Origin: an uncultured delta proteobacterium
GTDB lineage: Bacteria > Desulfobacterota > Binatia > Binatales > Binataceae
DNA length: 64,000 bases
Direction of reading: 5' to 3'
Assembly: GCA_963724765.1 (NCBI GenBank)
Contig: CAVRVY010000003.1
Span: 1,504,001-1,568,000, forward strand
Part shown: in pieces, positions 29,775 to 55,966 of the stretch
How the letters are laid out: each line of letters opens with the position of its first letter
How positions within the stretch are numbered: position 1 is the stretch's first letter
The notes under the pieces: generated by a model
The model's input: only the letters and a program-made list of their open reading frames with translations
Database searches by the model: none
What the model was told of the DNA's origin: nothing
Made by a program: the position numbers and the translations under genes

Positions 29775-32237
29775 ATGGCGACCGAGCAAGCGCACCCAAC
29801 CGCCCGCGCGGCGTCGGGCAATGAGCATGACTCCGAGCCCGCGATGGGCAGCCGCATCCCCGCGCTCAACAGCAGAGCCCTGGTTGCCGGACGCGGAACT
29901 TATGTCGGTGACGTCACGCTTCCCGGCATGCTGCACATGGCGCTCGTGCGCAGCATGTACGCTCACGCGCTGGTCAAGTCGATCGATATAAGCGCCGCTC
30001 AGGCCCTGCCCGCAGTGGTCTGCGTGGTGACCGGCGATGAGATCCGCCGCAACACCAAGCCGATTCCTCAGCCCTACAACAAAGCGGGAATTGGAGTGCA
30101 TGCCTACGACTGGTATGCGCTCGCCCACGACAAGGTGCGCTACGTGGGCGAGGCCGTGGCCGTGGTGGTAGCGGAGGACAAGTACACCGCGCGCAAGGCT
30201 GCGGAAATGGTCGAAGTCGAGTACGAGGAGTTGCCCGTGGTCGCCGACGCCGAGCGCGGGATGGCTCCTGGAGCGCCACTGGTCGAACCTTCGTGGGGTA
30301 CCAACCTGGTGATGGAGCGGACCACCGAGACCGGCGATGTCGCGGGCGCCTTCGCCGCCGCCGACGGTGTGATCAAAGGATGCCTTTCGACGCAGCGCTA
30401 CTCGGCCTCGCCGATGGAGCCACGCGGATACGCCGCCAGCTACGACACCTTCCGCGACCAGCTCACGGTGTGGGCCTCGACGCAGTGTCCGCATCCGTTG
30501 CGCACTTACATCGCGCACATCATCGGCATGGATGAAAACCGCGTGCGCGTGATACAGCCCAACGTGGGCGGCGCTTTCGGCTCCAAAATTCCCACTTACC
30601 AGGAAGAGCCGCTCACCGCTTATCTAGCGCGCAAGCTGGGGCGGCCGGTGAAATGGATCGAGGAGCGCAGCGAAAATCTGCTGACCGGCGGCCACGCTCG
30701 GGAGCAGAAGGTGCATTTCGAGGCCGCGTACAAGCGCGACGGCCAGGTCACCGGGCTCAAGGCCAAGATCGTCGCCGACGTCGGCGCGCCCTCCGCGCTC
30801 GCGGGATGGGAGATGAGTCTCGTCACCACTTTTTGCCTCCCTACCGTCTACAAGGTTCCCAACTGCCGCGTCGAGCTGTATCCAGTTGCGACCAACAAGT
30901 GTCCATGGAATGCGTACCGCGGCTTCGGCAAAGAGACCGCGTCATTCCTGATGGACCGGATCATGGACGGGGTCGCGCAAGCGACCGGAATCGATCGGGC
31001 GGCGGTGCGAATGCGCAATTACATCCAGCCGCACGAGTTTCCCTATCAACAGGTGAGCGGGGTGATTCTCGATAGCGGCAATTATCCGGGCGCTCTGAGC
31101 AAGCTGCTCGACCTCGTCGGCTACGCGGACTTTCCCAAACTGCAGGCCGAGGCGCGCCGCGAGGGCCGCCGCATCGGCCTGGGACTTGGCCAGGAACTGG
31201 TCGCCGAGGGCTGCTCGCTTCCGACCTCGCTGCTCGTCGCGGGCTACGACGGCGCCACCGTGCGAGTCAACCCCTCGGGCCAGGTGACGGTGCTGACGGG
31301 AGTAACTTCCCCTGGCAGCGGCAATGAAACCGCGATCGCGCAGGTGGCCGCGGACACGCTGGGCGTGGACGTAAACACGGTGCGCGTGATCCAGGGCGAC
31401 ACTGAGACTTGTCCCTGGGGGCTGGGCAACTACAGCTCACGCGCGGTCATCATGGGCGGCTCCGCCACTTTCGTGGCGGCTGGCGATATCAGACAAAAAA
31501 TTCTCAAGGTTGCGGGCCATATGCTCGAAGTTCTGCCCGCCGACCTGGAATGCCGCGGCGGCAAAATTTTTCCCAAGGACACGCCCGCGCGTTACGTCGC
31601 CTTCAACGAGGTTGTCCACACCATCTACAACGACACCTTCGGGATTCACGCCAAGGAGATCGAACCGGGGCTCGAGGCGACGCGTTACTTCCGTCATCCC
31701 AACATCTACCAGGAGGGCGATCCCGAGGGCCGTTCTTCGGCTTATCCTTCGTGGCCCAATGCGGTGGTCGGCGCGATCGTCGAGGTCGATCCTGCCACCG
31801 GCGGCCTCAAACTCCTGCGCGTCTGTATGGTTCACGACAGCGGCGTCGTGGTTAACCCTATGCTGGCCGAGGGCAACGTCCACGGGGGCATCGCGCAAGG
31901 CATCGGCGGAGCGATTTACGAGCATCTGGTCTACGACGAGAACGGCCAGTTCAAGACCGGCACCTTCATGGATTACACGCTGCCCACTGCGGTCGAAGTT
32001 CCGCCGCTCGAACTCGCGCATCAGGAGACCCGCTCGCCGTTCACGCCGTTGGGGACCAAGGGAGTCGGGGAATCGGGTGTGGCAGGCATCCTGGGCGCTA
32101 TCTGCGGCGCGGTCGAAAACGCCTTGCCGGAACTCGATCTCCGGCTGCTCGAGATGCCACTTGCCCCCGAGCGTCTGTGGCGCGCGATCCAGGCTGCGCC
32201 GAAGCGCGCAGCCAACGGCGGAGGCACCGTTCGATGA
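29775..32237 (+). CDS. Xanthine dehydrogenase-family molybdopterin subunit (CoxL/CutL-like, not form I CODH)
   Basis: VGGAFGSK, AYRGFG, GGIAQGIG, KGVGESG. Confidence 0.9.
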   Translation: MATEQAHPTARAASGNEHDSEPAMGSRIPALNSRALVAGRGTYVGDVTLPGMLHMALVRSMYAHALVKSIDISAAQALPAVVCVVTGDEIRRNTKPIPQPYNKAGIGVHAYDWYALAHDKVRYVGEAVAVVVAEDKYTARKAAEMVEVEYEELPVVADAERGMAPGAPLVEPSWGTNLVMERTTETGDVAGAFAAADGVIKGCLSTQRYSASPMEPRGYAASYDTFRDQLTVWASTQCPHPLRTYIAHIIGMDENRVRVIQPNVGGAFGSKIPTYQEEPLTAYLARKLGRPVKWIEERSENLLTGGHAREQKVHFEAAYKRDGQVTGLKAKIVADVGAPSALAGWEMSLVTTFCLPTVYKVPNCRVELYPVATNKCPWNAYRGFGKETASFLMDRIMDGVAQATGIDRAAVRMRNYIQPHEFPYQQVSGVILDSGNYPGALSKLLDLVGYADFPKLQAEARREGRRIGLGLGQELVAEGCSLPTSLLVAGYDGATVRVNPSGQVTVLTGVTSPGSGNETAIAQVAADTLGVDVNTVRVIQGDTETCPWGLGNYSSRAVIMGGSATFVAAGDIRQKILKVAGHMLEVLPADLECRGGKIFPKDTPARYVAFNEVVHTIYNDTFGIHAKEIEPGLEATRYFRHPNIYQEGDPEGRSSAYPSWPNAVVGAIVEVDPATGGLKLLRVCMVHDSGVVVNPMLAEGNVHGGIAQGIGGAIYEHLVYDENGQFKTGTFMDYTLPTAVEVPPLELAHQETRSPFTPLGTKGVGESGVAGILGAICGAVENALPELDLRLLEMPLAPERLWRAIQAAPKRAANGGGTVR

Positions 32238-33649
32238 TTACCCAGGAATTCGAGTTTCGCGCGCCGGACAAACTCGACGAGGCGCTAACCCTTCTGGCCG
32301 AGGGCGGCGACGACGTCAAGCTGCTCTCGGGCGGGATGAGCCTGATGCCGATGATGGCGCTCGGGCTGGTGCGGCCGCGCATCGTGCTCAGCCTCAACCG
32401 CATCGACGGCCGCGGCTACGTGCGAGAAGATCGCAACGCGCTGCGAATTGGCGCGGGCACGCGTCACTACGAGATCCTGCGCGATCCGCTTATTGCGCGG
32501 CACTGCGCGCTGCTGGCCGAGGCGGCCGCCTTTATCGGCGACACGCAGGTGCGCAATCGCGGCACCATTGGCGGCAGCATCGCCCATGCCGACCCGGCGG
32601 CGGACTATAGTCCCGTGCTGGTCGCTACCGGGGCGCGCGTGATCGTGCGGAGCCTGCGCGGCGAGCGCGAAATAGCCGCGGACAAGTTTTTTACCAACCT
32701 GATGGAAACGGCGCTTAAGCCCGACGAGATCGTAACGGAAGTCCTGGTCCCCAAGCTGGGGGCGGCGCGCGGCGCGTATACTCGGTTCCATCGCGTCGAG
32801 GGGAACTTCGCGATCGTCAATGCCGCGGCAATTCTGAGCGATGGACACGCGCGAGTCGCGCTGGGCGGCGTCGGATCCACGCCCGTCGCACTCGACGTAA
32901 GCGCGGAACTCTCGCACGGGGTCAACGCTGAGGCGCTCGAAGCCATTGGCCGGCGCGTGCGCGCCGCCTGCACCGACGCGCCCGCGGACCTCAATGCCAG
33001 CGCCGACTATCGCCGCCAGATGGCCGCGGTTTTCGCCGAGCGCGCATTCGCGATCGCGGCCGGACGCACGCCGTCGCAGCAGACGCCCGAGGTCGGGAGA
33101 AAAACCGCCCCGCCCGCATCAACGCCGCGCAAAACCGGCATGGTTGGCGGACCGCTTCGCACCGCAATTGCAGTTTCCGTAAACGGACAGCCGCGGCGCC
33201 TCGAGGCTGATAACCGGATGGTGCTGGCCGATCTGCTGCGCGACGTGATTGGGCTTACCGGCACGCACATCGGCTGCGGCACCGGAAGCTGTGGCGCATG
33301 CACGGTGATGCTCGACGGGCGCACGGTCAAGAGTTGCTCGGTGCTGGCCGCGGACGTCGACGGATGCGCGGTCGAGACGATCGAATCGCTGGCCTCCGAC
33401 ATCCATCATCTGCATCCGCTCCAGGAATCCTTCGTGCGCAACCACGGCCAGCAGTGCGGCTACTGTACGCCCGGGATGGTGATGTCGGCGTTGCAGCTGC
33501 TGCGCGACAATCCCAATCCTGACGAGGCCGCCATCCGGCACGGGATTTCCGGCAACCTTTGCCGATGCACCGGCTATCAGTTCATCGTCAATGCGATTTC
33601 CGACGCGGCGCGCACTCTCGGCGCGGCCAAGTCGCAGCCGCCGACATAG
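32234..33649 (+). CDS. Fused FAD-binding (CoxM-like) and 2x[2Fe-2S] (CoxS-like) subunit
   Basis: LSGGMSL, VRNRGTIGGS; Pro-rich linker; GCGTGSCGAC...C and QCGYC...NLCRCTGY. Confidence 0.88.
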   Translation: MITQEFEFRAPDKLDEALTLLAEGGDDVKLLSGGMSLMPMMALGLVRPRIVLSLNRIDGRGYVREDRNALRIGAGTRHYEILRDPLIARHCALLAEAAAFIGDTQVRNRGTIGGSIAHADPAADYSPVLVATGARVIVRSLRGEREIAADKFFTNLMETALKPDEIVTEVLVPKLGAARGAYTRFHRVEGNFAIVNAAAILSDGHARVALGGVGSTPVALDVSAELSHGVNAEALEAIGRRVRAACTDAPADLNASADYRRQMAAVFAERAFAIAAGRTPSQQTPEVGRKTAPPASTPRKTGMVGGPLRTAIAVSVNGQPRRLEADNRMVLADLLRDVIGLTGTHIGCGTGSCGACTVMLDGRTVKSCSVLAADVDGCAVETIESLASDIHHLHPLQESFVRNHGQQCGYCTPGMVMSALQLLRDNPNPDEAAIRHGISGNLCRCTGYQFIVNAISDAARTLGAAKSQPPT

Positions 33650-41889: not shown

Positions 41890-42106
41890 GCCGCGTACAT
41901 AAGTGTCTTTCGTTATTCTCTCCCCTGTGTTTTGGGGGAGCAGGTCAGAAAGTGCTCAACCAGTGATTCGCGAAGTTTCGTGTGCGTAAAGCAATCGGGG
42001 GGGGTCGAGAGGTCTAAGGCCTCGCCTTGCGGCGCTTAATTCTCTGTATTACAGCGTGACTACTGGTCTCCGTTTTTCGATCTCCACTTTTTTGGAGCGA
42101 CACGAC

Positions 42107-43357
42107 ATGCATGACAAAGACAACGGGCACAACACGCGCAGTACAAATGACGGCGGTCTGCTCTCCGGACTTCGGGTGATCGACTGCGGAACCTACGTTG
42201 CCGGCCCAGCGGCCGCCACGATCATGTCCGACTTCGGCGCCGAGGTGATCAAAATCGAGCGCCCCGGTGGCGGCGACCTGTGGCGGCTTTTTTCGAAGCT
42301 CCCCGGCACGGCCAAGTCCGAACTCGATTGGTGCTGGGTCCTCACCAGCCGCAACAAGAAAAGTGTCGCGCTGGATCTGGGACGGCCCGAAGGACGCGAA
42401 GCGCTGCTTCGCCTGGTGGGCACGGCGGATGTCTTCCTCACCAACTACCAGAGAACGCTGCTCGAGAAATTCCACCTGACTTGGGAGGACCTTGCGCCTG
42501 TCAACGACCGGCTAGTCTACGCGCACCTGACCGGCTACGGTGACGCGGGCGACGACGCAGATGACCCGGCGTTCGACGCGCTGGCGTACTGGGCACGCTC
42601 GGGTCTGATGACGAGCGTGACGGGGATCGACGGTTCGCCCAGCGGACCTCGGCCGGGGATGGGCGATCATCCAACCTCGATGTCGCTGTTCGGGGCGATC
42701 ATGCTGGGCCTTTACCGGCGCGAGCGCACCGGGCGCGGATCCAGGGTTAGTACATCTTTGCTGGCGAGCGGGGCGTGGGCCAACGCGTGCGACATTCAGG
42801 CCAAGCTCTTGAACGCGAAATTTCCCGAGCGCGGCGAGGGCAAGCATCCACCCAACCCGCTCACGGCTGTGTACCTCAGCCACGACGGCAAGATGTTTCT
42901 CCTCGTGCTAATCGATCCGGACAACGAGTTTCCGCGCCTGTGCCAAGCTTTCGGCCAGCCTGAACTCGGCACGGGCGAGTTGTTTGGAAGCAACGCCGAC
43001 CGCGATCAAAACGCGGCGGCGCTGTATGCAATCCTGCAGTCGCAGTTCGAATCGCGCGACCTGGCGGAGTGGAAAACGATCTTCAAATGCAACGACATCA
43101 AATGGGCGCCGCTGCCCAGGCTCGACGACGTCGTGCAGGATCCCCAGATGCGCGCGGCCGAGGCGTTCGTGAAGATGGATTATCCCGGGGCCGGTGTGCT
43201 GGAGACGGTGAACAGCCCGCTTTTCGTCTCCGGCGTGGAAAAACGGAAGCCCACGGCGGCGGCGGAGGTCGGCGCGCACACGCGCGAGGTACTGCAGGAA
43301 CTCGGGTATAGCGCGGAGGCAATCGAATCGATAGTGCGCGATGGCGCTCGGCGCTAG
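42107..43357 (+). CDS. CaiB/BaiF family CoA-transferase
   Basis: LRVIDCGTYVAGP, FGAEVIKIE, RNKKSVALDL, GMGDH. Confidence 0.9.
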   Translation: MHDKDNGHNTRSTNDGGLLSGLRVIDCGTYVAGPAAATIMSDFGAEVIKIERPGGGDLWRLFSKLPGTAKSELDWCWVLTSRNKKSVALDLGRPEGREALLRLVGTADVFLTNYQRTLLEKFHLTWEDLAPVNDRLVYAHLTGYGDAGDDADDPAFDALAYWARSGLMTSVTGIDGSPSGPRPGMGDHPTSMSLFGAIMLGLYRRERTGRGSRVSTSLLASGAWANACDIQAKLLNAKFPERGEGKHPPNPLTAVYLSHDGKMFLLVLIDPDNEFPRLCQAFGQPELGTGELFGSNADRDQNAAALYAILQSQFESRDLAEWKTIFKCNDIKWAPLPRLDDVVQDPQMRAAEAFVKMDYPGAGVLETVNSPLFVSGVEKRKPTAAAEVGAHTREVLQELGYSAEAIESIVRDGARR

Positions 43358-43507: not shown

Positions 43508-44860
43508 ATGCATTTCATGTGGTTTACGGAACGGGCGTACCATTATGATCCTGAGGTCGACCCGGCCAAGTATCATGCGCTGGAGAATCAGATCGTTGGA
43601 CTGCGCAGCTTCTTCAACACCCCCAACCGTTTTTTCGAGCGCGAGCACGGAGCGAAACTGCTCAACCAATACCTCGACGAGAAGATTTACACGGACTCCG
43701 AGCTGATGAGCTTCGACGGCGTGATGCTCAACGAGCATCATGGCACGCCGTTTTGCCTCGGTGCCGTGATGGATGTCGAAGCTTCCATCCTCGCCAAGAC
43801 CACCAAGCGGCTGAAGATGGTCCTGCTCGGCAATCCCGTCGCCACCGTCGCCAATCCGCTGCGCCTGGCGGAAGAACTGGCGATGATCGATCTCATCTCG
43901 GGCGGACGCCTGGTCTCCGGATGGGTGCGCGGCGCCGGTTCCGAGCAGTTCGCCAACAACACCAACCCGGCGCTCAACCGCGAACTGTTCGAGGAAGGCG
44001 TCGATTTCATCGTCAAGGCGTGGACCACGCCGGGCCCATTTCGCTACGAGGGCAAGCACTACAACTTCCGCAACGTGAACCCCTGGGTGCTGCCGCTGCA
44101 ACGGCCGCATCCGCCGTTCTGGATCCCGGGCCTGGTGAGTCCCGACACCGCCTTTTGGTGCGCCCGCAAGCGCTATCCGTACGTCGCCCTGGCCACGAGG
44201 CTGCAGCCGACGCTGGAGCTCTGGGACTTCTATGCGAAGGCGGCTGCGCAGGAGGGTTATCAGGCGGGGCCGGAGAATTTCGGCTACTTGCAGCCGGTGG
44301 TGGTGGCCGATACGCAGGAGCGAGCGGAGGAACTGGGCAAACGGATTCTTTTCGGCGGCGCCTTTGCGCACTTTGCTCGGCCGGAATGGATGTTCCCTCC
44401 GGGATACAATTCCAAGGCCGCAACCAAGCGTCTGGCCGAGTCGAATTTCGGCGCCAACGCCGCGGCCAAGTCGCTTTACGGCGAGGGCGGCAACAACGAG
44501 TCCGAAGAACAGATCGAAGCCGTCAAGAAACACATCTATGACGGCTATCCGGACGTCCTGAAGGACTACGTAATGATCGCCGGCACGCCTGACAACGTGA
44601 TTCCCAAGCTCAATAAAGTGCTCGACGTCCTGCGCCCGGGCATCTTTTCGTTCTGGCTCGACGGACCGGTCCCGGCCAAGGACCGGATGCGATGCCTGGA
44701 ATTGCTCAACCGCGACGTGATTCCGGCCATGCGCGACTACGGCAAGACGATCGGATTGGTCGATCCATTCCAGCGCGCTCCGGGTTCGCGCCCGTTGCGT
44801 CCGGGGGTTGCACCAGAGCCGGTGAGCAATGCCGACGCGCTCGCGTCGATGACGGCCTGA
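43508..44860 (+). CDS. Luciferase-like (LLM) flavin-dependent oxidoreductase
   Basis: FDGVMLNEHH, PLRLAEELAMIDLISGGRL, PLQRPHPP. Confidence 0.9.
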   Translation: MHFMWFTERAYHYDPEVDPAKYHALENQIVGLRSFFNTPNRFFEREHGAKLLNQYLDEKIYTDSELMSFDGVMLNEHHGTPFCLGAVMDVEASILAKTTKRLKMVLLGNPVATVANPLRLAEELAMIDLISGGRLVSGWVRGAGSEQFANNTNPALNRELFEEGVDFIVKAWTTPGPFRYEGKHYNFRNVNPWVLPLQRPHPPFWIPGLVSPDTAFWCARKRYPYVALATRLQPTLELWDFYAKAAAQEGYQAGPENFGYLQPVVVADTQERAEELGKRILFGGAFAHFARPEWMFPPGYNSKAATKRLAESNFGANAAAKSLYGEGGNNESEEQIEAVKKHIYDGYPDVLKDYVMIAGTPDNVIPKLNKVLDVLRPGIFSFWLDGPVPAKDRMRCLELLNRDVIPAMRDYGKTIGLVDPFQRAPGSRPLRPGVAPEPVSNADALASMTA

Positions 44861-45061: not shown

Positions 45062-45862
45062 ATGAGCTCTTCGGAAGAGGTGGCGGCCGGGCGTGCTCCT
45101 ACTGACTGGCTCGTCGGCTGGAAAACTCTATTTGTCGCATGCGGCCTGCTAATGGCCTGCAACGTTTTCCTTTGGGTCTGGGATTACAACTACGCGTTTA
45201 CGGCGGGACTTGATTCCTCGAGCCGCGCCTTCACGCTTCACTACCGCACGCTGTTCTGGGGTGAGCTGCTGAGCGTGGGGGCATTTGCCGGCCTGTGGTA
45301 CGGATGGCTGATGCGGACCGGCCGCAGTCTCGTGGGCGAGGCGGTGGCGCCCGCCGAAGAGGTGCGGCGCGTTGTGGTGCTGTGGGGAATTATCGGAGTT
45401 ACCAGCCTCTCGATCTACATCGAGGCGAGCTTCTGGCCCAACTGGGACGGCGCGTGGCATCAGACGATGGTGCGCGATACCGCGCTCACCCCGACCCACA
45501 TTCCGATGTTCTACTTCTTCTTCCCGATGTCGGTGGTGCTGGCCCTGGGAGCGTACCTGTACGGGCGCTTTCGGATTCCCGCGGTCTACGGCGGCGAGAA
45601 GGGATTCCCGTGGTCTTTCTTTTTGTTGATCGCGGCCGCGGTTCTCGAATTCGTGGAGGTCGCCTTCAACGAATGGGGTCACAGTCTCTGGATGTCAGAG
45701 GAATTCTTCTCGGTGCCCTTCCATTGGCCTTTTGTCATTTATGGATGGCTGGCGGGTGGGATGTTCGCGGTGTGGGGCGAAACCATCCTCTATCTCTTCC
45801 AGATAGAAAAGAGGGCGCGAGCGGTGGAAGAACTCCCGACCCATACGGCTGCCGCCGGCTAA
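45062..45862 (+). CDS. pmoC: Copper membrane monooxygenase subunit C (PmoC/AmoC family)
   Basis: AGLDS, EEVRR, DGAWHQTMVRDT..TPTH (D129/H133/H146), NEWGH...EEFFSVPFH (N203/H207/H221). Confidence 0.93.
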   Translation: MSSSEEVAAGRAPTDWLVGWKTLFVACGLLMACNVFLWVWDYNYAFTAGLDSSSRAFTLHYRTLFWGELLSVGAFAGLWYGWLMRTGRSLVGEAVAPAEEVRRVVVLWGIIGVTSLSIYIEASFWPNWDGAWHQTMVRDTALTPTHIPMFYFFFPMSVVLALGAYLYGRFRIPAVYGGEKGFPWSFFLLIAAAVLEFVEVAFNEWGHSLWMSEEFFSVPFHWPFVIYGWLAGGMFAVWGETILYLFQIEKRARAVEELPTHTAAAG

Positions 45863-45911
45863 GCGGCGCAAACTGCTCTTCTCAAATCCTGGCGTCTCGC
45901 GCGAGGGAAGC

Positions 45912-46709
45912 ATGGCGACAGCACCATCGTTAGCCGCAGCCGCGGCGGCCGAGAAGCAACGCAGGCTCGCGCTGCGCGACCTGCTCAACGCGAAATATCA
46001 ATGGATCGATCGCACCTGGGACGCGGTCTTCTGGATCACGGCCATCTTCGTCGTTGCCGGGGCGGCGGACATCACGCGGCTGCTGTTCGCCGGCGATTGG
46101 GATTTCTGGACTGATTGGAAAGATCCGCAATGGTGGCCGGTGGTGACCGCCTTCGCCACCATCATCATTCCTTCCGCACTCCAATACATTCAGTGGGCCG
46201 CCTGGCGGTTCCCCACCGGCGCGACGTACACGTGCGTGTGCCTTTTCATGGCCTCGTGGATCGGGCGCTACTTCCAATGGCACGTGGCCGAAAGCTATCC
46301 AATGAACTTCATATGGCCGATATCGACGATTCCGGCGGCCATAATTCTTGACTGGCTATTGATGAGAACGAAAAGTTTCGTACTGACATCGCTTTTCGGC
46401 GGAGGGATTTGGGCCGTGATGGTGTGGAGCTTCAACTATATCCCGCTCGCGCCATTCCTTCAGCCGATGCAATTCATGCATCACATTCTCACGGTTGCCG
46501 ACGTCCAGGGCATCGTTTACATCCGCACCCAGACGCCCGAATACATGCGGCATATTGAACGCGGCGCGCTGCGCAGCTTTCTCGGCGAGACCCAGTACGT
46601 GTCGCTGCTGTTTGGCGGCACGATGGCGATGGTCGGTTATTGGATCGGCCAGTTCATCGGGCGATACCTCGCCGTGTGGCCGATTGGCAGATACATCAAG
46701 ACCGTCTGA
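45912..46709 (+). CDS. pmoA: Copper membrane monooxygenase subunit A (PmoA/AmoA family), divergent
   Basis: GDWDFWTDWKD, RFPTGAT, YPMNF, ADVQG, RTQTPEYMRHIERGALRSF. Confidence 0.93.
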   Translation: MATAPSLAAAAAAEKQRRLALRDLLNAKYQWIDRTWDAVFWITAIFVVAGAADITRLLFAGDWDFWTDWKDPQWWPVVTAFATIIIPSALQYIQWAAWRFPTGATYTCVCLFMASWIGRYFQWHVAESYPMNFIWPISTIPAAIILDWLLMRTKSFVLTSLFGGGIWAVMVWSFNYIPLAPFLQPMQFMHHILTVADVQGIVYIRTQTPEYMRHIERGALRSFLGETQYVSLLFGGTMAMVGYWIGQFIGRYLAVWPIGRYIKTV

Positions 46710-46728
46710 GCGAGGCGCGGGCACAGCG

Positions 46729-46965
46729 ATGCGAACCGTCTTTCGTTGCTTACGCGCCGTCGTGGTCGCGCTCCTGTGGACCAGCGTATTTGCCGCCAGC
46801 GCCTATGCGCATGGTGGAATCGCCGGGCCCGACGAGCTTGGCCCGCCGGTAATCACCTCGGCCGTGCTCGGCATCGGTGGCTACTGGTTGATGTTGCTGT
46901 GGCCGTCGCGCCGCCGTCCGGTGGTCAGCAAAAAAAACAAGCCGATGCGTAACGTGATGAAGTAG
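46729..46965 (+). CDS. 78-aa single-pass membrane protein between pmoA and pmoB
   Basis: ATG 19 nt after pmoA stop; signal peptide ending AYA, then HGG; TM VITSAVLGIGGYWLMLLW; basic tail. Confidence 0.72.
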   Translation: MRTVFRCLRAVVVALLWTSVFAASAYAHGGIAGPDELGPPVITSAVLGIGGYWLMLLWPSRRRPVVSKKNKPMRNVMK

Positions 46966-47007
46966 CGGACTTGCAGGCGGATTTTCCACGCCATACGGGG
47001 AGGCGGA

Positions 47008-48258
47008 ATGCGAATGCGATTTCCGGCTGTTCTGTCAGCGGCTCTCTTCCTGCTCACAGCATCCTATGCGCCACGCGCTTTCGCGCACGGCGAAGCGGCG
47101 GACGAGCCGTTCCTCAAGGATCTCACCGTCGCCTTCTATGACGTGCACATCTCGCCTACCACGATCAAAGTAGGTGAGCCGGTCACGATCACTGGAGCGG
47201 TGAAAATTCTCGAGACCTGGCCATATACGCTCGATCCGCCGCAAACCGCGTACATCACGCCGGTCGTTCCGGGCCCGGTCTTCGCGCTCATCAACCGGGA
47301 GATTAATGGGACCGCGGCGCCGGGCTCGATCCTGGTCGACAAGGGCGGCACTTATCATTTCAAAATGGTGATCGAGGGGCGCGACCCCGGAAACTGGCAC
47401 GTGCATCCGGGAATCGCTATACAGGGCACCGGGACTCTCATCGGCCCGGGCGAGTGGGTCACGGTTGAGCGGGGGGCCGCGCCCTTCAAAATGGACGTGA
47501 CGCTGCTCACTGGCCAAACCGTCAATCTGGAGCATTACGGCGGCAGTTTCGTATGGTGGTGGTCATTCGCCGGGTTCCTGATCGGCATGATCTGGATGAT
47601 CTATTGGACCGTTCCCAAACGTACCGTTACCCGTCTCGCGGTGACCACACAAATACCGGTCAACGACGACGCTCCCGACATCGGACTCATCACCCCGCGC
47701 GACCACATGTGGATGGACGTGCTCGCCGGTGCGACGATCGCGATGCTGGTCGTCGGCTGGATCTACATGGCAGTGAAGTTTCCCGTGCGGTTGCCGCAGC
47801 AGACGGTGCGCTTTGCGCCCGAGGTCATCGATTCCACCACTCATTCGGTCCAGGTGATGAAAGCCGATTCCACCTACGACGATCGGACCGATACGCTGTT
47901 GATAAACCTCGCGGTCAGGAATACCGGGACCGTTGCGTTAAGCCTGAAGCAATACATCATGGCGATGGCCACGTTCGTCAATGGCGACAAGAAAGAACAG
48001 GAAAAGGCCGGACCGGCGCACTACGTCGGGCGCATGCAGGTCGAGCCCGACGCTCCGATCGAGCCCGGACAGACCGCGAAGGTGCAATTGAAGATAAGTA
48101 GTCCGCTGTTCGATGAAGAGCGGCTCATCCCGCTGCACGACCCGCAGGAGCGTATCGCGGGGCTGCTGCGCTTTACCGGTCCGCAGGGTCACGAGGACCT
48201 GGTTACCCTGCATACCGATCTCGTGCCAACGGAGTTCCGCCCGCAGTATTTGCCTTAG
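47008..48258 (+). CDS. pmoB: Copper membrane monooxygenase subunit B (PmoB/AmoB family)
   Basis: Signal peptide AFA then HGE; FYD; PGPV; GNWHVH; GPGEW; two TMs; PIEPGQT; IAGLL. Confidence 0.93.
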   Translation: MRMRFPAVLSAALFLLTASYAPRAFAHGEAADEPFLKDLTVAFYDVHISPTTIKVGEPVTITGAVKILETWPYTLDPPQTAYITPVVPGPVFALINREINGTAAPGSILVDKGGTYHFKMVIEGRDPGNWHVHPGIAIQGTGTLIGPGEWVTVERGAAPFKMDVTLLTGQTVNLEHYGGSFVWWWSFAGFLIGMIWMIYWTVPKRTVTRLAVTTQIPVNDDAPDIGLITPRDHMWMDVLAGATIAMLVVGWIYMAVKFPVRLPQQTVRFAPEVIDSTTHSVQVMKADSTYDDRTDTLLINLAVRNTGTVALSLKQYIMAMATFVNGDKKEQEKAGPAHYVGRMQVEPDAPIEPGQTAKVQLKISSPLFDEERLIPLHDPQERIAGLLRFTGPQGHEDLVTLHTDLVPTEFRPQYLP

Positions 48259-48276: not shown

Positions 48277-48822
48277 GTGAAGATCAAGCGACGCGAGTTC
48301 CTGCACAAGAGCGCGCTGGTGGTCGCCGGCGTATCGGCAGCGGCCGCTGGTGTTACGGTCACCGGCTTTGCCGCCGAATGGACTTCGAAATTAAAGACCC
48401 TGAATGCACACGAGGCTGAAACGCTGCTCAAGATGGCGCGGCAGATCTTCCCGCACGACCGCCTCGGCGATAGCTACTATATAAAAGTAGTTGATGACCT
48501 CGATGCGGAGGCGGCAAGCAAGCCCGCCACCGCCAGAATGATAAGCGCAGGAGTAGCTAATCTGGATCATTTGGCGAAAGGCGAATTTGCCGCCCAACCC
48601 GCCAGCGATCAAATCGCCGCGCTCAAGAAAATTCAGCATACGCCGTTTTTCGAGAAGGTCCGCAGCACCGAGCTGGTTTCGCTGTACAATAACGAGGACG
48701 TTTGGAAGGTCTTCGGCTACCAGGGCGCCTCCTACCGTTTCGGCGGTTACCTGCATCACGGCTTCAACGACCTGAATTGGCTGCCGGAACCACCCGAAGC
48801 GGCAAGCCCGAAACCGGGCTGA
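48277..48822 (+). CDS. Tat-signal small subunit (gluconate 2-dehydrogenase subunit 3-like)
   Basis: KRREFL twin-arginine motif; IFPHD; LYNNEDVWKVFGYQG; GGYLHHGFNDLNWL. Confidence 0.8.
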   Translation: MKIKRREFLHKSALVVAGVSAAAAGVTVTGFAAEWTSKLKTLNAHEAETLLKMARQIFPHDRLGDSYYIKVVDDLDAEAASKPATARMISAGVANLDHLAKGEFAAQPASDQIAALKKIQHTPFFEKVRSTELVSLYNNEDVWKVFGYQGASYRFGGYLHHGFNDLNWLPEPPEAASPKPG

Positions 48823-48837
48823 ACGGAGAGTTGCATC

Positions 48838-50406
48838 GTGGCTCGATTCGATTCGAATGACGATTCCGTCGTGGTAATCATCGGTTCGGGAGCGGGCGGA
48901 GGCACGCTGGCGAACGAGCTCTGTCACAAGGGCTTCAAGGTGGTGATGCTCGAGGCGGGGCAGCGTCAGTCGCCGCAGACCTTTCACAACGACGAGTGGT
49001 TCGCATTCAAGCAACTAGCCTGGCTCGATAAGCGCACCACCTCGGGGACCTGGCGGGTAGCGAAGGACTTCCCCAACCTGCCGGCCTGGACCTGCAAGAC
49101 GGTTGGTGGAACGACCGTGCACTGGGCGGGCGCGTCGTTGCGCTTTCAGGAGCACGAATTCAAGACCAAGACCACCTATTCAAGTGTCAGCGGTGCGAAC
49201 CTTCTCGACTGGCCGATAAGCCTCGCGGAATTGGCGCCTTACTACGCCAAGGCCGAGGATAAGATGGGCGTGACGCGGACTAATGATATTCCGGGACTCC
49301 CGGGGAATAACAATTTCAAGGTAATGTATAATGGTGCCACGCGTGTAGGGTATAAGACTGTGCACACCGGGCGCATGGCGATTAATAGCCGGCCCCGCGA
49401 CCGCCGTTCGTCCTGCTGGCAACTCGGATTTTGTTTCCAGGGCTGCAAGTCGGGAGCGAAGTGGTCAACTCTCTACACCGAAATTCCGAAGGCCGAGTCC
49501 ACTGGTAAGCTCGATTTGCGGCCCGGGTCCTACGCGCTCCAGATTCAGCATGACGCCAATGGCAAAGCGACCGGCGTGCTGTACGCCGATAAGGACGGCA
49601 AACATGTCGTGCAGAAGGCGCGCATCGTGTGCGTGGCCTGCAATTCGATCGAAAGCGCGCGGCTCCTGCTCAACTCGGCCTCGTCCACGTTCCCGCACGG
49701 GCTCGCCAATTCATCCGGCCAGGTCGGCAGAAACTACATGCGGCATACGACCGGCTCCGTCTACGCCATTTTCGACAAGCCGGTCCATATGTATCGTGGT
49801 ACCGTGATGGCCGGAATCATCACCGACGAAGCCGAGTTGAATACCAAGCGCGGGTTTGCCGGCGGTTTCGAGATGGAGACCATCTCGCTCGGACTGCCGT
49901 TCGCGGCCGCGTTCCTGGATCCGGGAGCCTGGGGACGCGACTATTCGAGCATGCTTGAGCAGTATCCCAACATGGCTGGGTTGTGGATCGTGGGCGAGGA
50001 CATGCCGCAGGCGACCAACGCCGTGACGCTCCATCCGACGGTAAAGGACCAGTGGGGTCTCCCGATTCCGAACGTGCACTACGACGATCATCCCAACGAC
50101 GTCGCCATGCGCAACTACGGATACAAGCAGGGCGCTGCGGTGTACAATGCCGTTGGGGCGATCAAGACCATCGCGGTCCCGCCGTATCCTTCGACGCATA
50201 ACCTGGGCACGTGCCGTATGAGCGAGCGCCCCGGCGACGGCGTCTGCAATAAGTGGGGCCAGACTCACGACGTGAAAAATCTGTTCATTTCCGACGGCAG
50301 CCAGTTCACGTCCAGTGGGGGCGAGAATCCCACGCTCACGATCGTCAGCCTGGCCATCAGGCAAGCCGATCGCATCGCCGCCGAGAGTGCGAAGCGGAAC
50401 CTCTAG
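48838..50406 (+). CDS. GMC family flavin oxidoreductase
   Basis: IIGSGAGGG, VGGTTVHW, CWQLGFCFQGC, GRNYMRH, HNLGTCRM, NPTLTI; no signal peptide. Confidence 0.93.
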   Translation: MARFDSNDDSVVVIIGSGAGGGTLANELCHKGFKVVMLEAGQRQSPQTFHNDEWFAFKQLAWLDKRTTSGTWRVAKDFPNLPAWTCKTVGGTTVHWAGASLRFQEHEFKTKTTYSSVSGANLLDWPISLAELAPYYAKAEDKMGVTRTNDIPGLPGNNNFKVMYNGATRVGYKTVHTGRMAINSRPRDRRSSCWQLGFCFQGCKSGAKWSTLYTEIPKAESTGKLDLRPGSYALQIQHDANGKATGVLYADKDGKHVVQKARIVCVACNSIESARLLLNSASSTFPHGLANSSGQVGRNYMRHTTGSVYAIFDKPVHMYRGTVMAGIITDEAELNTKRGFAGGFEMETISLGLPFAAAFLDPGAWGRDYSSMLEQYPNMAGLWIVGEDMPQATNAVTLHPTVKDQWGLPIPNVHYDDHPNDVAMRNYGYKQGAAVYNAVGAIKTIAVPPYPSTHNLGTCRMSERPGDGVCNKWGQTHDVKNLFISDGSQFTSSGGENPTLTIVSLAIRQADRIAAESAKRNL

Positions 50407-50418
50407 CGGAAGCTCCAG

Positions 50419-51036
50419 ATGACGCGGCGCGTTTTCGGATTTCGCAGCGGCGCGTCGGCAGTTTGGATCGCCTCAGCGGCGATACTCATGCTGGCGCTTC
50501 CGTTCGCGGCGCGGGCTGAACTCGGCAAAGCCGCGGCGCGGGCGGTGGCGAGTCCTGCCGACGGCCTGCCAAAAGTAAGTCTTACAGACCAGAATGGCAG
50601 AGCGATCTCGCTTTCGTCATTGAAGGGCAAGCCGGCACTGGTCGCTTTTATCCACACCTCGTGCGAAGGGCCCTGCGAGCTGATCACTGCCGAGATGAAG
50701 TCGGTCGCGCGGAGCCTGGGGCCCAGCTTCAGGTCCGAAGTCACGATGGTCTCGATCACTACGGACCCCAAGGAGGACGGATCGCGCGAGCTGCTTGCCT
50801 ATGCCAAGGCGCAAGGAGTGGACGCCGACGGATGGGTGTTCCTGACCGGCGCGCCCGCAAAGATTCGCCGGCTCCTGGCCCTTTACGGCGTCTCGGCTGA
50901 AGACGACGACTCGGCCCACGTCCTGGAGCTGTTTCTGCTCAGCGCCGACGGCGTTGGATTACGCCGTTACAATGGTCTCGCGACACGTCCGGAAACGATC
51001 GCCTCGGATATCAGGAAAACCGTCTCGCTTCATTAG
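50419..51036 (+). CDS. SCO1/SenC copper chaperone
   Basis: N-terminal anchor, LTDQNG, TSCEGPC (CxxxC), ITTDP, WVFLTG, distal His (SAH). Confidence 0.88.
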   Translation: MTRRVFGFRSGASAVWIASAAILMLALPFAARAELGKAAARAVASPADGLPKVSLTDQNGRAISLSSLKGKPALVAFIHTSCEGPCELITAEMKSVARSLGPSFRSEVTMVSITTDPKEDGSRELLAYAKAQGVDADGWVFLTGAPAKIRRLLALYGVSAEDDDSAHVLELFLLSADGVGLRRYNGLATRPETIASDIRKTVSLH

Positions 51037-54239: not shown

Positions 54240-54427
54240 GAGCCATCGGATCGGAATCGGAAGAGCGATTACAAGGACAGGATATCAAACCGGTCGAGCC
54301 TTTGTAGAGCAATCTATGCGGTCGAGCGGCCGGATTCGCGTCGCAGTGGAAAGATATTCAATTGACGAAATCAGAGAATTGGCGCATCGTTGAGTGTCTA
54401 AGCTGCAACAAGATCCGGAGCGTCAAA

Positions 54428-55966
54428 ATGGCTGAGGCAAGCAAACTTTCGCGCCGCCTGAGCACCCAGGACGCTTCATTTCTATACAACGAGACGCCCA
54501 ACGGCCCACTGCACATCGGTCTCCTCCAAACCTTCGAAGGCGAGATCGAGTTCGATCGGCTGATAGAGTATTTCGAGCGCCGCATTCATCTTTTGCCGGG
54601 TTACCGGCAGCGCCTGATTTTCGCGCCGTTTAACCTCGCTCACGCGACCCTGGAGGATGATCCGGCGTTCGAGCTGCGCAATCACCTAAAGCGCCACACG
54701 CTCCACAGCGGCGCCGACGACGCTGAAATGGCCGAAATAGCGATGTGCGTCAACGAGCCTCCGTTGGAGCGGAGCCGCCCGCTATGGGAATTGCATCTGT
54801 TCCAGGGCCTCGAGGGCGGCCGTTCAGCGCTGCTGTGGAAAATCCATCACTGCATTGTCGACGGGGTCTCAGCGTTGCAATTGATTGCGACCGCGATGGA
54901 TCTGAGACCTGACGCTCCGGCGCCGGCGCCTGAGCGTGAGCCGTGGGCGCCCGCGAGCCTGCCCGACAGCTCCAAGTCCCTGCTGGACGCGGCGGTAGCG
55001 CTGGTCGAGAACCGGCTCGATGAACTGCATGAGGCCGCAAGACTGCTGAGCTCGCCGGCCGATCTGGCCGAGCGGAGCGCTGCGATGGCCGGCGCGGCCG
55101 CGCAGATGTTCCAGATGATGTCGCGGCCGATCGTTGCGGCGCCATGGAACATGGGGCTCGTCAGCCGGGCCTGCTCGCTAGCGTGGCTTAGGGTCTCTTT
55201 CGGCGACCTTCGCGCAATCCGCAGCGCGCTTGGTGGCACGGTCAATGACGTGGTGCTGACTATCCTGAGCGAGGGCGCCGCGCGCTACCTGAAACACCAC
55301 GAGGTCGCCACAGATGGGCTTGCGCTGCGCGTCGGATGTCCGGTCAACGTGCGGCGCGAGGGCGAGAACGGAGCGATGGGCAACCGGGTATCAATGATGT
55401 TTCCCGAATTGGCGGCGACGCCGATGGACCCAATCGAGCGCTACCGCTCAGTAGTGCGGGAGACCGAGCGAATCAAGGCTGCGCGCGAGCCGCAGGGGAT
55501 GGACTTGCTAACGGCGACCGCTGACTCGGTCTCGCCCGGCTTGCAAGACTTCAACTCGAAGATGACAAATAGCGCGATCGAGGCCGCGACACGGCTCTCC
55601 GAGTTCACAGGCGGTCTGGCCCGAATGATCGCGGGGCCGCCGATGGGGATCAACTTCATCGCTACGAACGTGCCGGGGGCTCAGGTTCCGATGTACCTGG
55701 CGGGGCATCGGATGCTCGATTTCGTCGGCCTCGTTCCACTGGCGGGCACGCTCGGCTATGGCGTGGCGATAGTTAGCTACAATCAGAACCTGTTCTTTGG
55801 ACTGATGGCGGAGCCGCAGATGATGCCCGACGTGGAATTCATGAAGTCGTGCATCGCAGACGCCTTTGAGGAACTCAAGGCCGCAGTGCAAAGAGTAATG
55901 TCCGCGCAAGAGCAATTGATAAAGGCGGCCGGACAAGTACTGAAACGCGATTCAGCGCTGGCGTGA
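54428..55966 (+). CDS. Wax ester synthase/diacylglycerol acyltransferase
   Basis: LSTQDASFLYNE, PLWE, HHCIVDG (HHxxxDG), TVNDV, TNVPG. Confidence 0.92.
   Translation: MAEASKLSRRLSTQDASFLYNETPNGPLHIGLLQTFEGEIEFDRLIEYFERRIHLLPGYRQRLIFAPFNLAHATLEDDPAFELRNHLKRHTLHSGADDAEMAEIAMCVNEPPLERSRPLWELHLFQGLEGGRSALLWKIHHCIVDGVSALQLIATAMDLRPDAPAPAPEREPWAPASLPDSSKSLLDAAVALVENRLDELHEAARLLSSPADLAERSAAMAGAAAQMFQMMSRPIVAAPWNMGLVSRACSLAWLRVSFGDLRAIRSALGGTVNDVVLTILSEGAARYLKHHEVATDGLALRVGCPVNVRREGENGAMGNRVSMMFPELAATPMDPIERYRSVVRETERIKAAREPQGMDLLTATADSVSPGLQDFNSKMTNSAIEAATRLSEFTGGLARMIAGPPMGINFIATNVPGAQVPMYLAGHRMLDFVGLVPLAGTLGYGVAIVSYNQNLFFGLMAEPQMMPDVEFMKSCIADAFEELKAAVQRVMSAQEQLIKAAGQVLKRDSALA

Follow-up and report, generated by a model that had tools for sequence, protein, structure and literature searches.

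Where in a copper membrane monooxygenase (CuMMO) does catalysis take place, and on what substrate, when most of the residues proposed for its tricopper site have been exchanged? The question is raised by an operon in a stretch of 64,000 nucleotides from an uncultured Binatia bacterium (assembly GCA_963724765.1, contig CAVRVY010000003.1, positions 1,504,001 to 1,568,000, forward strand; the whole stretch is called the window here, and positions count from its first letter). CuMMOs govern the oxidation of methane, ammonia and short-chain hydrocarbons, and the location of their active site has been disputed for decades. The tricopper model is by now widely doubted, and PmoC E154 (reference residues are numbered as in Methylococcus capsulatus Bath) is presumably one of the ligands proposed for it. 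PmoA H38, M42, D47, D49 and E100 are among the proposed ligands of this site, also called site D or CuE (PMC9145241, PMC12576850; papers cited by PMC number are drawn on for passages of their text), and these five are highly conserved in methanotrophs (PMC9145241). The first-pass annotation of the window had reported that such ligands are lost here and glutamates gained, and had read this as a natural variant with a conserved CuC/CuD core, a more polar pocket and probably a non-methane substrate; the observation was sound and the interpretation half right. We consider, with a probability of about 0.7, that the window encodes a CuC/CuD-centred hydroxylase with a rebuilt second sphere and probably a non-methane substrate, from an uncharacterised clade.

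One complete CuMMO operon lies in the window, at 45062-48258 on the + strand, with the gene order C-A-x-B:

45062..45862, + strand, xmoC, PmoC/AmoC-family subunit of 266 amino acids (aa; PF04896, 151.6 bits)
45912..46709, + strand, xmoA, PmoA/AmoA-family subunit of 265 aa (PF02461, 201.1 bits)
46729..46965, + strand, x, membrane protein of 78 aa that spans the membrane once, read by translation
47008..48258, + strand, xmoB, PmoB/AmoB-family subunit of 416 aa (PF04744, 279.2 bits)

The Pfam matches of C, A and B (AmoC, AMO and Monooxygenase_B) all lie far over the Pfam cut-offs, so that the three subunits of the CuMMO superfamily are present, and the operon also holds the full CuB, CuC and CuD ligand sets. 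The subunits align with the structures of particulate methane monooxygenase (pMMO) from Bath and its relatives at E values of 1e-31 to 1e-63, PDB matches of PmoC reaching 1e-40. In the source genome (5.4 Mb in 4 contigs, 96.98% complete, 5.16% contamination) xmoA is the sole PF02461 match, and among named homologues, proteins of Candidatus Binataceae / Binatia come nearest, with 96-98% identity. Against five close relatives among loci L003-L008 (dS 0.39-0.80), the ratio of nonsynonymous to synonymous substitution rates (dN/dS) lies at 0.02-0.03 in A, at 0.05-0.11 in C and at 0.08-0.12 in B, which means that the enzyme is in working use. The operon is a single-copy, selectively maintained CuMMO of a Binatia bacterium, and belongs to a large clade that is biochemically uncharacterised. 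The purifying selection, together with the gene for an SCO1 copper chaperone in the same cluster, lends indirect support to a putative copper-dependent hydroxylase activity of the encoded enzyme. That it could instead be a decaying or inactive relic has next to no probability: nothing beyond the divergence from curated models speaks for it, whereas the frames of the three genes and of x are intact, dN/dS stays at 0.02-0.12, the operon architecture is kept across the genomes of 80 relatives and the copper ligands are invariant over 250+ sequences. The dN/dS values and the conservation of the ligands rule out a pseudogene.

A scan of species-representative genomes gave at least 546 tblastn-confirmed relatives, and a scan of metagenome contigs at least 527; the best 80 of each were kept, both sets being dominated by one clade. 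The clade counts given below pool these two 80-locus sets with the homologues listed in the protein searches, and comprise 275 PmoA, 257 PmoC and 73 PmoB rows. The clade keeps every accepted copper ligand, namely the CuB His brace, the CuC Asp/His/His and the CuD Asn/His/His. In PmoB, Bath H33, H137 and H139 correspond to H27, H131 and H133 (alignment to 3rgb_A), which are present in 73/73 rows. In PmoC, the CuC ligands D156, H160 and H173 correspond to D129, H133 and H146, and the CuD ligands N227, H231 and H245 to N203, H207 and H221; they are found in 252-256 of the 257 rows. The adjoining E213 is present in 257/257 rows, and E214 and H221 in 256 each. By contrast, only two of the six proposed tricopper ligands are kept in the window (D62 and D64, the counterparts of D47 and D49, which are also all that PmoA retains of the five residues conserved in methanotrophs), and the others have become D53, L57, S115 and N127. 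The earlier proposal of CuC/CuD as the conserved core is therefore supported, since the CuB, CuC and CuD ligands are invariant in the clade and the proposed tricopper ligands are not. The bis-His pair of PmoB is absent, as had been reported: A42 replaces H48 and K66 replaces H72. These positions are A 70, G 2, S 1 and K 55, R 13, T 4, Q 1, respectively, in the 73 rows, and the bis-His site is described as poorly conserved in CuMMOs (PMC11725843, PMC13058606).

The exchanged and retained residues of PmoC and PmoA are located as follows:

45422..45424, + strand, PmoC E121 (aligned with Bath G148), not constant among clade members
45431..45448, + strand, PmoC F124-W-P-N127-W-D129 (Bath Y151-F-T-E154-Q-D156), before the CuC Asp ligand
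45458..45499, + strand, PmoC H133 and H146 (CuC ligands H160/H173) with R138-D139, invariant in clade and outgroups
45635..45682, + strand, PmoC helix segment A192-E196-E199-N203-H207, with A192 and E196 upstream of the CuD ligands N203/H207
45698..45724, + strand, PmoC E213-E214 and H221 (CuD ligand H245)
46068..46082, + strand, PmoA D53-I-T-R56-L57 (Bath H38-I-H-A-M42)
46095..46103, + strand, PmoA D62-W-D64 (Bath D47 and D49), kept
46254..46268, + strand, PmoA S115-W-I-G118-R119 (Bath E100-W-I-N103-R104)

The range first reported for these changes, 45420-46260, spans the codons from E121 to S115, and the codon positions agree by translation. PmoA aligns with Bath PmoA (1yew_B) without gaps, query residues 30-253 lying over chain residues 15-238. 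Bath ...GSYHIHAMLTMGDWDFW falls over ...GAADITRLLFAGDWDFW of the window, and H38, H40 and M42 are thereby replaced by D53, T55 and L57; further along, Bath LLGEWINRYF falls over FMASWIGRYF, where E100 becomes S115, N103 becomes G118 and R104 is kept as R119. The four PmoA replacements at H38, H40, M42 and E100 had been noticed before, and A41>R56 and N103>G118 are added to them here. PmoC was aligned with the Methylosinus/Methylocystis structures, the Bath YFTEQD being tied in through the PmoC of Methylomagnum pXMO. ASFFTEQDG of the former lies over ASFWPNWDG of the window, which bears out the reported change from FTEQD to WPNWD and with it E154>N127. All three reported glutamates are present, E121 over G148, E196 over I220 and E199 over N223, and only E196 is conserved in the clade. 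The position of E121 holds E in 171, M in 77, G in 2 and A in 1 of the 257 rows, with gaps in 6, and that of E199 holds Q in 107, E in 72, A in 41 and T in 33.

Are these replacements chance divergence, or have they been selected? A signature scan, which picks positions where the clade has one fixed residue, no outgroup has that residue and the outgroups agree among themselves, finds only 4 positions in the 265 residues of PmoA (D53 from H, S88 from A, F100 from L and F112 from L) and 12 in PmoC, among them F124 from Y, P126 from A, N127 from E, A192 from G and E196 from L. The PmoC positions form two clusters, F124/P126/N127 before the CuC Asp and I190/A192/E196 before the CuD Asn. H40, M42, E100, E121, E199 and the bis-His pair fail the scan, as they vary in the outgroups or inside the clade. 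Chance divergence is thus ruled out for H38, E154 and E196 and accepted for the rest. In other words, the suspicion that the exchanged residues are commonly variable is borne out by the family alignment for H40, M42, E100 and the bis-His pair and not for H38 and E154, the two positions retained in all 8 outgroup operons and replaced in the window clade. The second CuMMO type represented by locus L087 illustrates this pattern, since it keeps H38, M42 and E154 and carries H40>S and E100>A. P126 and N127 are each present in 252/252 non-gap clade rows, where 8/8 outgroup operons have A-E, and D129 is likewise present in 252/252; A192 and E196 are each present in 256/256 rows, where the outgroups have G and L/I, respectively. 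Among loci in which both subunits can be read, 132/132 (74 + 58) pair a PmoA D/N-I-T with a PmoC P-N, and 8/8 outgroup operons pair the PmoA His with A-E. We therefore define the clade as DIT/PN/E196 by PmoA [D/N]-I-T (Bath 38-40), PmoC P-N (Bath 153-154), A192 and E196, all of which the window has. The variant reported earlier is real, and hundreds of sequences share it as a signature of the whole clade, so that it is no singular case.

The family-wide PmoA set (the best 150 of 178 50%-cluster representatives, of which 92 rows cover the region together with 5 reference rows) includes many fragments, and its counts are of rows, not lineages. The H38 column of these 97 rows holds H in 52 and D in 27, and the other 18 rows carry one of Q, S, V, P, T, F, L, G, C, R and K; the D47 column holds D in 92/97 and the D49 column in 80/97. 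Lineages without H38 besides the window clade include P0306, P0313, P0320/P0325/P0345/P0348, P0324 and P0341. When metagenome contigs were searched with an alignment of six lineages lacking the His, 76 same-clade loci and 4 HMO-like loci were found, and none of the sought lineages appeared among the best 80 metagenome loci. A search of the phylum around a Methylomirabilota-labelled metagenome-assembled genome (MAG) found a CuMMO in 2/251 genomes and gave one extra outgroup, L087.

Within the clade, PmoA position 53 is D in 245 of the 275 rows, N in 25 and F/Y in 3, and position 56 is K in 202 and R in 39. The two positions are coupled: 241 rows pair D with K/R and only 4 pair D with M/L, while the 25 N53 rows have M/L/H/N and never K/R at position 56 and fall into 5 separate FastTree groups, a grouping that is approximate. 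Thus, D53 and K/R56 co-vary within the clade, in what the alignment suggests to be several events. T55 is present in 273/275 rows, D62 and D64 in 275/275 each, G118 in 269/275 and R119 in 273/275, the last of these being invariant family-wide in the signature scan. Position 115 is less restricted (A 113, S 103, T 41, V 12, Q 6). The clade lacks the acids of E100 and E154, and the acid of D53 is gained. Because P126-N127 and T55 are near-invariant, D53 and K/R56 are coupled, and R119, D62 and D64 are kept, the alignments indicate that the polar cluster at the interface of the first transmembrane helix of PmoA and PmoC (Chan's site D/CuE) is rebuilt, not merely lost. The first-pass claim of lost tricopper ligands was right about the replacement of four of six, and it missed that the site has been rebuilt under selection.

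What would the rebuilt cluster do? Catalysis would take place at the CuC/CuD pocket, as in pMMO and ammonia monooxygenase (AMO), and the cluster would be a structural element and part of a water or proton network beside the active pocket rather than a copper site. This would agree with a quantum refinement of 7ev9, which gave no support for copper at the site and was best satisfied by two waters hydrogen-bonded to H38, N103, R104 and E100; in the same work Bath R104 is hydrogen-bonded to E100 (PMC12576850). D53 and K/R56 may form an ion pair, D53 and N127 may take over the contact between H38 and E154, and the invariant R119 would keep an acid nearby in D53. In the AMO of N. halophila, the first transmembrane helix of AmoA and helices 3-6 of AmoC form a channel under CuC/CuD, and a water network leads from CuB to CuC/CuD (PMC12804982). 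It could be argued that a metal is held at the rebuilt site even so, by the carboxylates of D53, D62 and D64, in a cofactor site of another kind, as the conservation of D62 and D64 in 275/275 rows and of D53 in 245/275 would allow. This we judge very unlikely, considering that D53 gives way to N/F/Y in 28 rows, that its charge is coupled to that of K/R56, that the His and Met are gone, and that even the pMMO site is best modelled as water (PMC12576850).

On the CuD side, E196 is, as far as the aligned sequences tell, the most interesting single residue, conserved as fully as the metal ligands. It lies two turns before the CuD Asn, is predicted to be membrane-buried and accompanies E154>N next to the CuC Asp. 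In an AlphaFold2 model of PmoC (50 sequences, mean pLDDT 82.1) residues 184-208 form one continuous helix, with confidence falling over 201-210. A regular helix would place A192, E196, E199, N203 and H207 on one face (i-11, i-7 and i-4 from N203, within about 40 degrees). By this periodicity, E196 would face the CuD pocket or channel, where it would alter the second sphere or the substrate channel, and the more polar pocket proposed in the first reading may be attributed to this residue. A stronger version would have E196 mark a distinct CuMMO subclass, in which a second-sphere acid has moved from the CuC to the CuD side and either ligates or bridges CuC/CuD or binds the substrate, giving a new, possibly polar, reactivity or substrate class, with x as a possible copper-handling subunit; we regard this as possible and doubtful.

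What the enzyme oxidises can be approached through its place in the family. None of its subunits reaches the cut-offs of the pMMO/AMO equivalogs TIGR03078/79/80 (142.9 with a cut-off of 280.6 for C, 191.3 with 318.15 for A, 210.3 with 394.9 for B) or those of bacterial AMO (NF041557, A, 209.1 against 290; NF041640, B, 284.7 against 336; NF041641, C, 171.7 against 319). A maximum-likelihood tree was built from 46 chosen rows: besides the window these were 13 loci, 4 operons of the outgroup, 6 homologues with names and 22 representatives of 50% clusters that are close to full length. In this tree the window clade is monophyletic (20 rows, 100/100 support, stem of 0.54), with the metagenomic sequence P0306 as its sister. 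The HMO of NBB4 groups with Rhodococcus WAY2 and P0311 in a separate clade (98/98) with the window outside it, and pMMO/pXMO-like rows also lie elsewhere. NBB4 HMO, considered as a characterised member of the window clade, was rejected on this placement. The best-scoring NCBIfam models for all three subunits are those of bacterial AmoA/B/C, though below cut-off, and a carboxylate stands on the CuD helix; hence one might think of an AMO-like enzyme of a heterotroph in which E196 helps to bind ammonium. With scores far under the AMO cut-offs and a clade remote from the pMMO/AMO-like rows of the tree, this is highly improbable. The hydroxylamine oxidoreductase model (PF13447) had no match in the source genome nor in any control genome, which makes this negative uninformative.

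Genes next to the operon provide further information about the possible fate of the product:

48277-48822, + strand, small subunit with a twin-arginine signal (RREFL motif visible)
48838-50406, + strand, GMC flavoprotein dehydrogenase (GMC_oxred_N/C)
50419..51036, + strand, SCO1/SenC copper chaperone homologue (PF02630, 69 bits)

The best solved relatives of the GMC protein are the large subunit of fructose dehydrogenase (7w2j, 9e-48) and FAD-glucose dehydrogenase (6a2u). The small subunit and the GMC protein stand near the operon in 34-35 of the best 80 relatives' loci, and the SCO1 homologue is also beside the operon in L060. The periplasmic GMC pair may oxidise the alcohol product of the monooxygenase. 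In the ten relatives examined, a Zn-dependent alcohol dehydrogenase (ADH) lies directly upstream of xmoC in five (L060, L072, L074, L078, L079) and Amidohydro_2 with FeS_assembly_P lies upstream in five (L060, L074, L076, L078, L079); an aldehyde dehydrogenase (L079), a PQQ dehydrogenase (L048) and an Fe-ADH (L055) occur once each. The source genome has 17 Amidohydro_2 matches. [quoted passage not shown] As a separate observation, clade members outside Binatia (L060, L072, L074, L076, L078, L079) carry the accessory module of a soluble di-iron propane monooxygenase beside a copper enzyme.

On the one hand, the operon could encode a true methane monooxygenase, which in soil and peat might serve, for instance, to oxidise methane at atmospheric or otherwise low levels, with rebuilt residues that are neutral for the substrate. 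The CuB, CuC and CuD ligands are all kept, a methanotrophic life has been proposed for Binatia that carry genes of this kind (PMC8262859, PMC11264602), and the three DNA runs that contain half or more of the words sampled from the stretch bear the labels freshwater sediment, soil and peat (no RNA run is listed as holding the operon's sequence words). On the other hand, the 96.98% complete source genome has no match to PQQ methanol/ethanol dehydrogenase (TIGR03075) or to methenyl-H4MPT cyclohydrolase (PF02289), and its NDMA-methanol dehydrogenase score is 52.7 bits against a cut-off of 625 (TIGR04266). Moreover, the window has lost H38, M42 and E100, which are reported as strongly conserved among methanotrophs (PMC9145241), the clade groups with non-methanotroph lineages and the scores stay below the equivalog cut-offs; a methane monooxygenase is therefore considered unlikely. 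Rather unlikely, too, is a polar or oxygenated small molecule (ketone, alcohol or amine) as substrate, with E196 binding it or handling protons. This would suit a residue conserved like the copper ligands (256/256) on the CuD helix, the varied alcohol- and polyol-type dehydrogenases nearby, and a Verrucomicrobia pMMO homologue reported to oxidise acetone (PMC8630023), whereas the ADH, amidohydrolase and Fe-S-assembly module of the relatives is known from propane oxidation. The combined evidence favours, and does not prove, a non-methane substrate, probably a short-chain hydrocarbon, whose alcohol product would pass to an adjacent dehydrogenase, here the periplasmic GMC flavoprotein. The non-methane substrate suggested in the first reading is thus supported along indirect lines (equivalog scores, tree, genome content and ADH neighbours).

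Several points weigh against this interpretation. The tolerance of N (25 rows) or F/Y (3 rows) at position 53 means that an acid is not essential there. The switch from H38/E154 to D53/N127 is, at the level of sequence, an association rather than demonstrated co-evolution; it is a single event in the tree, and because the lineages without the His were not recovered, the association rests on that one event. The geometry assumed for D53-K56, D53-R119, D53-N127 and E196-CuD would follow from the sequence register and from published descriptions. In the AMO structure the fifth transmembrane helix can kink (PMC12804982), so that the i-7 argument placing E196 on the same face may fail. As regards the substrate, the adjacent GMC enzyme may itself oxidise methanol, and the absence of methanol dehydrogenase is that of three models in one slightly incomplete genome with 5.16% contamination. 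The ADH and amidohydrolase context belongs to relatives at 49-57% PmoC identity and not to the window itself, genome studies of Binatia keep methane open for their CuMMOs (PMC8262859, PMC11264602), and no CuMMO biochemistry was found for the cultured carriers Carbonactinospora thermoautotrophica, Lentzea sp. and Caldinitratiruptor microaerophilus. A homologue search from the PmoA of a Nocardioides MAG (L081) likewise found no characterised enzyme among the best 120 of 211 matches.

The clade extends over Binatia, Actinomycetota, Dormibacterota, Chloroflexota and Acidobacteriota. The best 80 genome relatives are mostly labelled Binatia or 'delta proteobacterium', and the most distant of them Chloroflexi, Dormibacterota, Actinomycetota, Acidimicrobiales, Vicinamibacterales and Nocardioides. 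Some of these labels call for caution. The operons of L080/L083 and of L081/L082, in MAGs labelled Vicinamibacterales (Acidobacteriota) and Nocardioides (Actinomycetota), are equal in similarity to the window in all three subunits, and such identical values indicate mis-binning or very recent transfer. L036, L043 and L044 are MAGs labelled 'Klebsiella pneumoniae' or 'uncultured Enterobacteriaceae' with a Binatia-type CuMMO at about 79% PmoA identity, and these labels look wrong. Genome G115, reached through the Methylomirabilota-labelled sample, has two CuMMO operons (L087 and L088), one of the window type (70% PmoC identity) and one of a distant type (32% PmoC and 36% PmoA identity) keeping H38, M42 and E154; the PmoA cluster of the distant type (P0312, 211 members) is also found on multi-megabase contigs. 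In two long proteins, P0314 (514 aa) and P0332 (985 aa), the PmoA domain lies at residues 272-502 and 680-898, respectively; they are possible subunit fusions or gene-call run-ons.

The small protein x is found between A and B in 69/80 relatives' loci (best 80 kept). Its predicted signal peptide ends in A-x-A, and the His that follows would be the N-terminus of the mature protein (H-G-G-I/M); the protein also has an E-L-G-P-P motif, a single transmembrane helix (…CYWLxxLWP) and a tail of basic residues; A27-H28, P40, Y52, W58 and P59 are invariant in 25 rows. A Pfam search matched no family, and the sole return from the ESM Atlas was a Binatota hypothetical cluster at 0.87. Complex prediction of x with a C/A/B protomer gave scores of 0.30 and 0.15 against a mark of 0.32, which allows no verdict either way. 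As leads only, the predicted N-terminal His recalls the His-brace of PmoB, and its one helix is reminiscent of the 'extra helix' that is left unassigned in maps of pMMO/AMO (PMC11725843).

Other genes on the + strand surround the cluster. Upstream of xmoC lie a family III CoA-transferase gene (42056-43357) and one for a 450-aa luciferase-like monooxygenase (43508-44860), an arrangement found at 88-98% identity only in the seven closest relatives, L002-L008, distant loci giving weak matches of 23-44%. Further off, 11 kb upstream (29775-33649), is the gene of a molybdopterin (CO-dehydrogenase/xanthine-dehydrogenase-like) large subunit to which an FAD/2Fe-2S subunit is fused, and a wax-ester synthase/DGAT gene lies 4 kb downstream of the cluster (54362-55966).

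The clade is a widespread natural experiment, in which, under strong purifying selection, the CuB, CuC and CuD ligands are fixed and other residues stand in for four of the six ligands proposed for the tricopper site. Ligands fixed while tricopper residues are replaced are comparative evidence for the CuC/CuD view. The clade also provides testable second-sphere residues of its own (E196, A192, P126-N127 and D53-K/R56), which could explain substrate differences, and a simple sequence rule by which soil surveys, where Binatia are now counted as putative methanotrophs, could tell its members from true pmoA.

Compared with known systems, Bath pMMO (1yew, 3rgb, 7ev9, 7s4h) belongs to the same fold family as the window enzyme and has identical CuB, CuC and CuD sets, with D47, D49 and R104 kept; it differs by H38D, H40T, A41R, M42L, E100S and N103G in PmoA, by Y151F, F152W, T153P, E154N, G148E, I220E and N223E in PmoC and by both residues of the PmoB bis-His, absent from the window. 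NBB4 HmoCAB (Mycolicibacterium chubuense, plasmid NC_018022, L089) is, like the window, from a non-methanotroph and keeps the CuB, CuC and CuD ligands; its order is C-A-B, an alcohol-oxidising gene (mdo) is nearby, and it presumably oxidises C2-C4 substrates. H40>N, E100>Q and N103>S are replaced in this HMO at positions also replaced in the window, from which it differs by 45% PmoA identity, by keeping H38, M42 and E154 and by L at the E196 position. Rhodococcus WAY2 resembles NBB4 HMO in keeping H38, M42 and E154 and in H40>N and E100>Q. The pXMO (pxmABC, Methylomagnum ishizawai plasmid, L090) is another divergent CuMMO, with M42>A and E100>T; unlike the window it has the order A-B-C, keeps H38, H40 and E154 and shares 35% PmoA identity. 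The archaeal CuMMOs (Nitrososphaerales AMO and Ca. Angelarchaeales; Diamond et al. 2022, PMC9038741) are considered functional with their A- and D-sites absent and B- and C-sites kept, like the window, so that evidence of this kind is not new; in the same account D-sites are conserved only within bacterial lineages, and the window represents a bacterial clade without a D-site and with a conserved replacement set. From its place in the tree rather than a sequence match, the window may belong to the published 'Actinobacteria/SAR324' CuMMO type. Closest are the CuMMOs of Binatota/Binatia (Murphy et al. 2021, PMC8262859; Slate River MAGs, PMC11264602), which like the window have the order C-A-x-B and conserved CuB His; their substrate is stated to be unresolved, and their genes are placed near proposed butane monooxygenases. 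The literature, in partial coverage and excluding supplements, gave no description of the D53-K/R56 pair, the P-N motif or an invariant E196 for this clade. Those Binatota papers examine the PmoB histidines, to which the window adds the PmoA and PmoC changes, E196 and the N-terminal His of x. Whereas D-site loss, Binatia CuMMOs and the C-A-x-B order are already published, the new part is the invariant E196 together with the coupled D53-K/R56.

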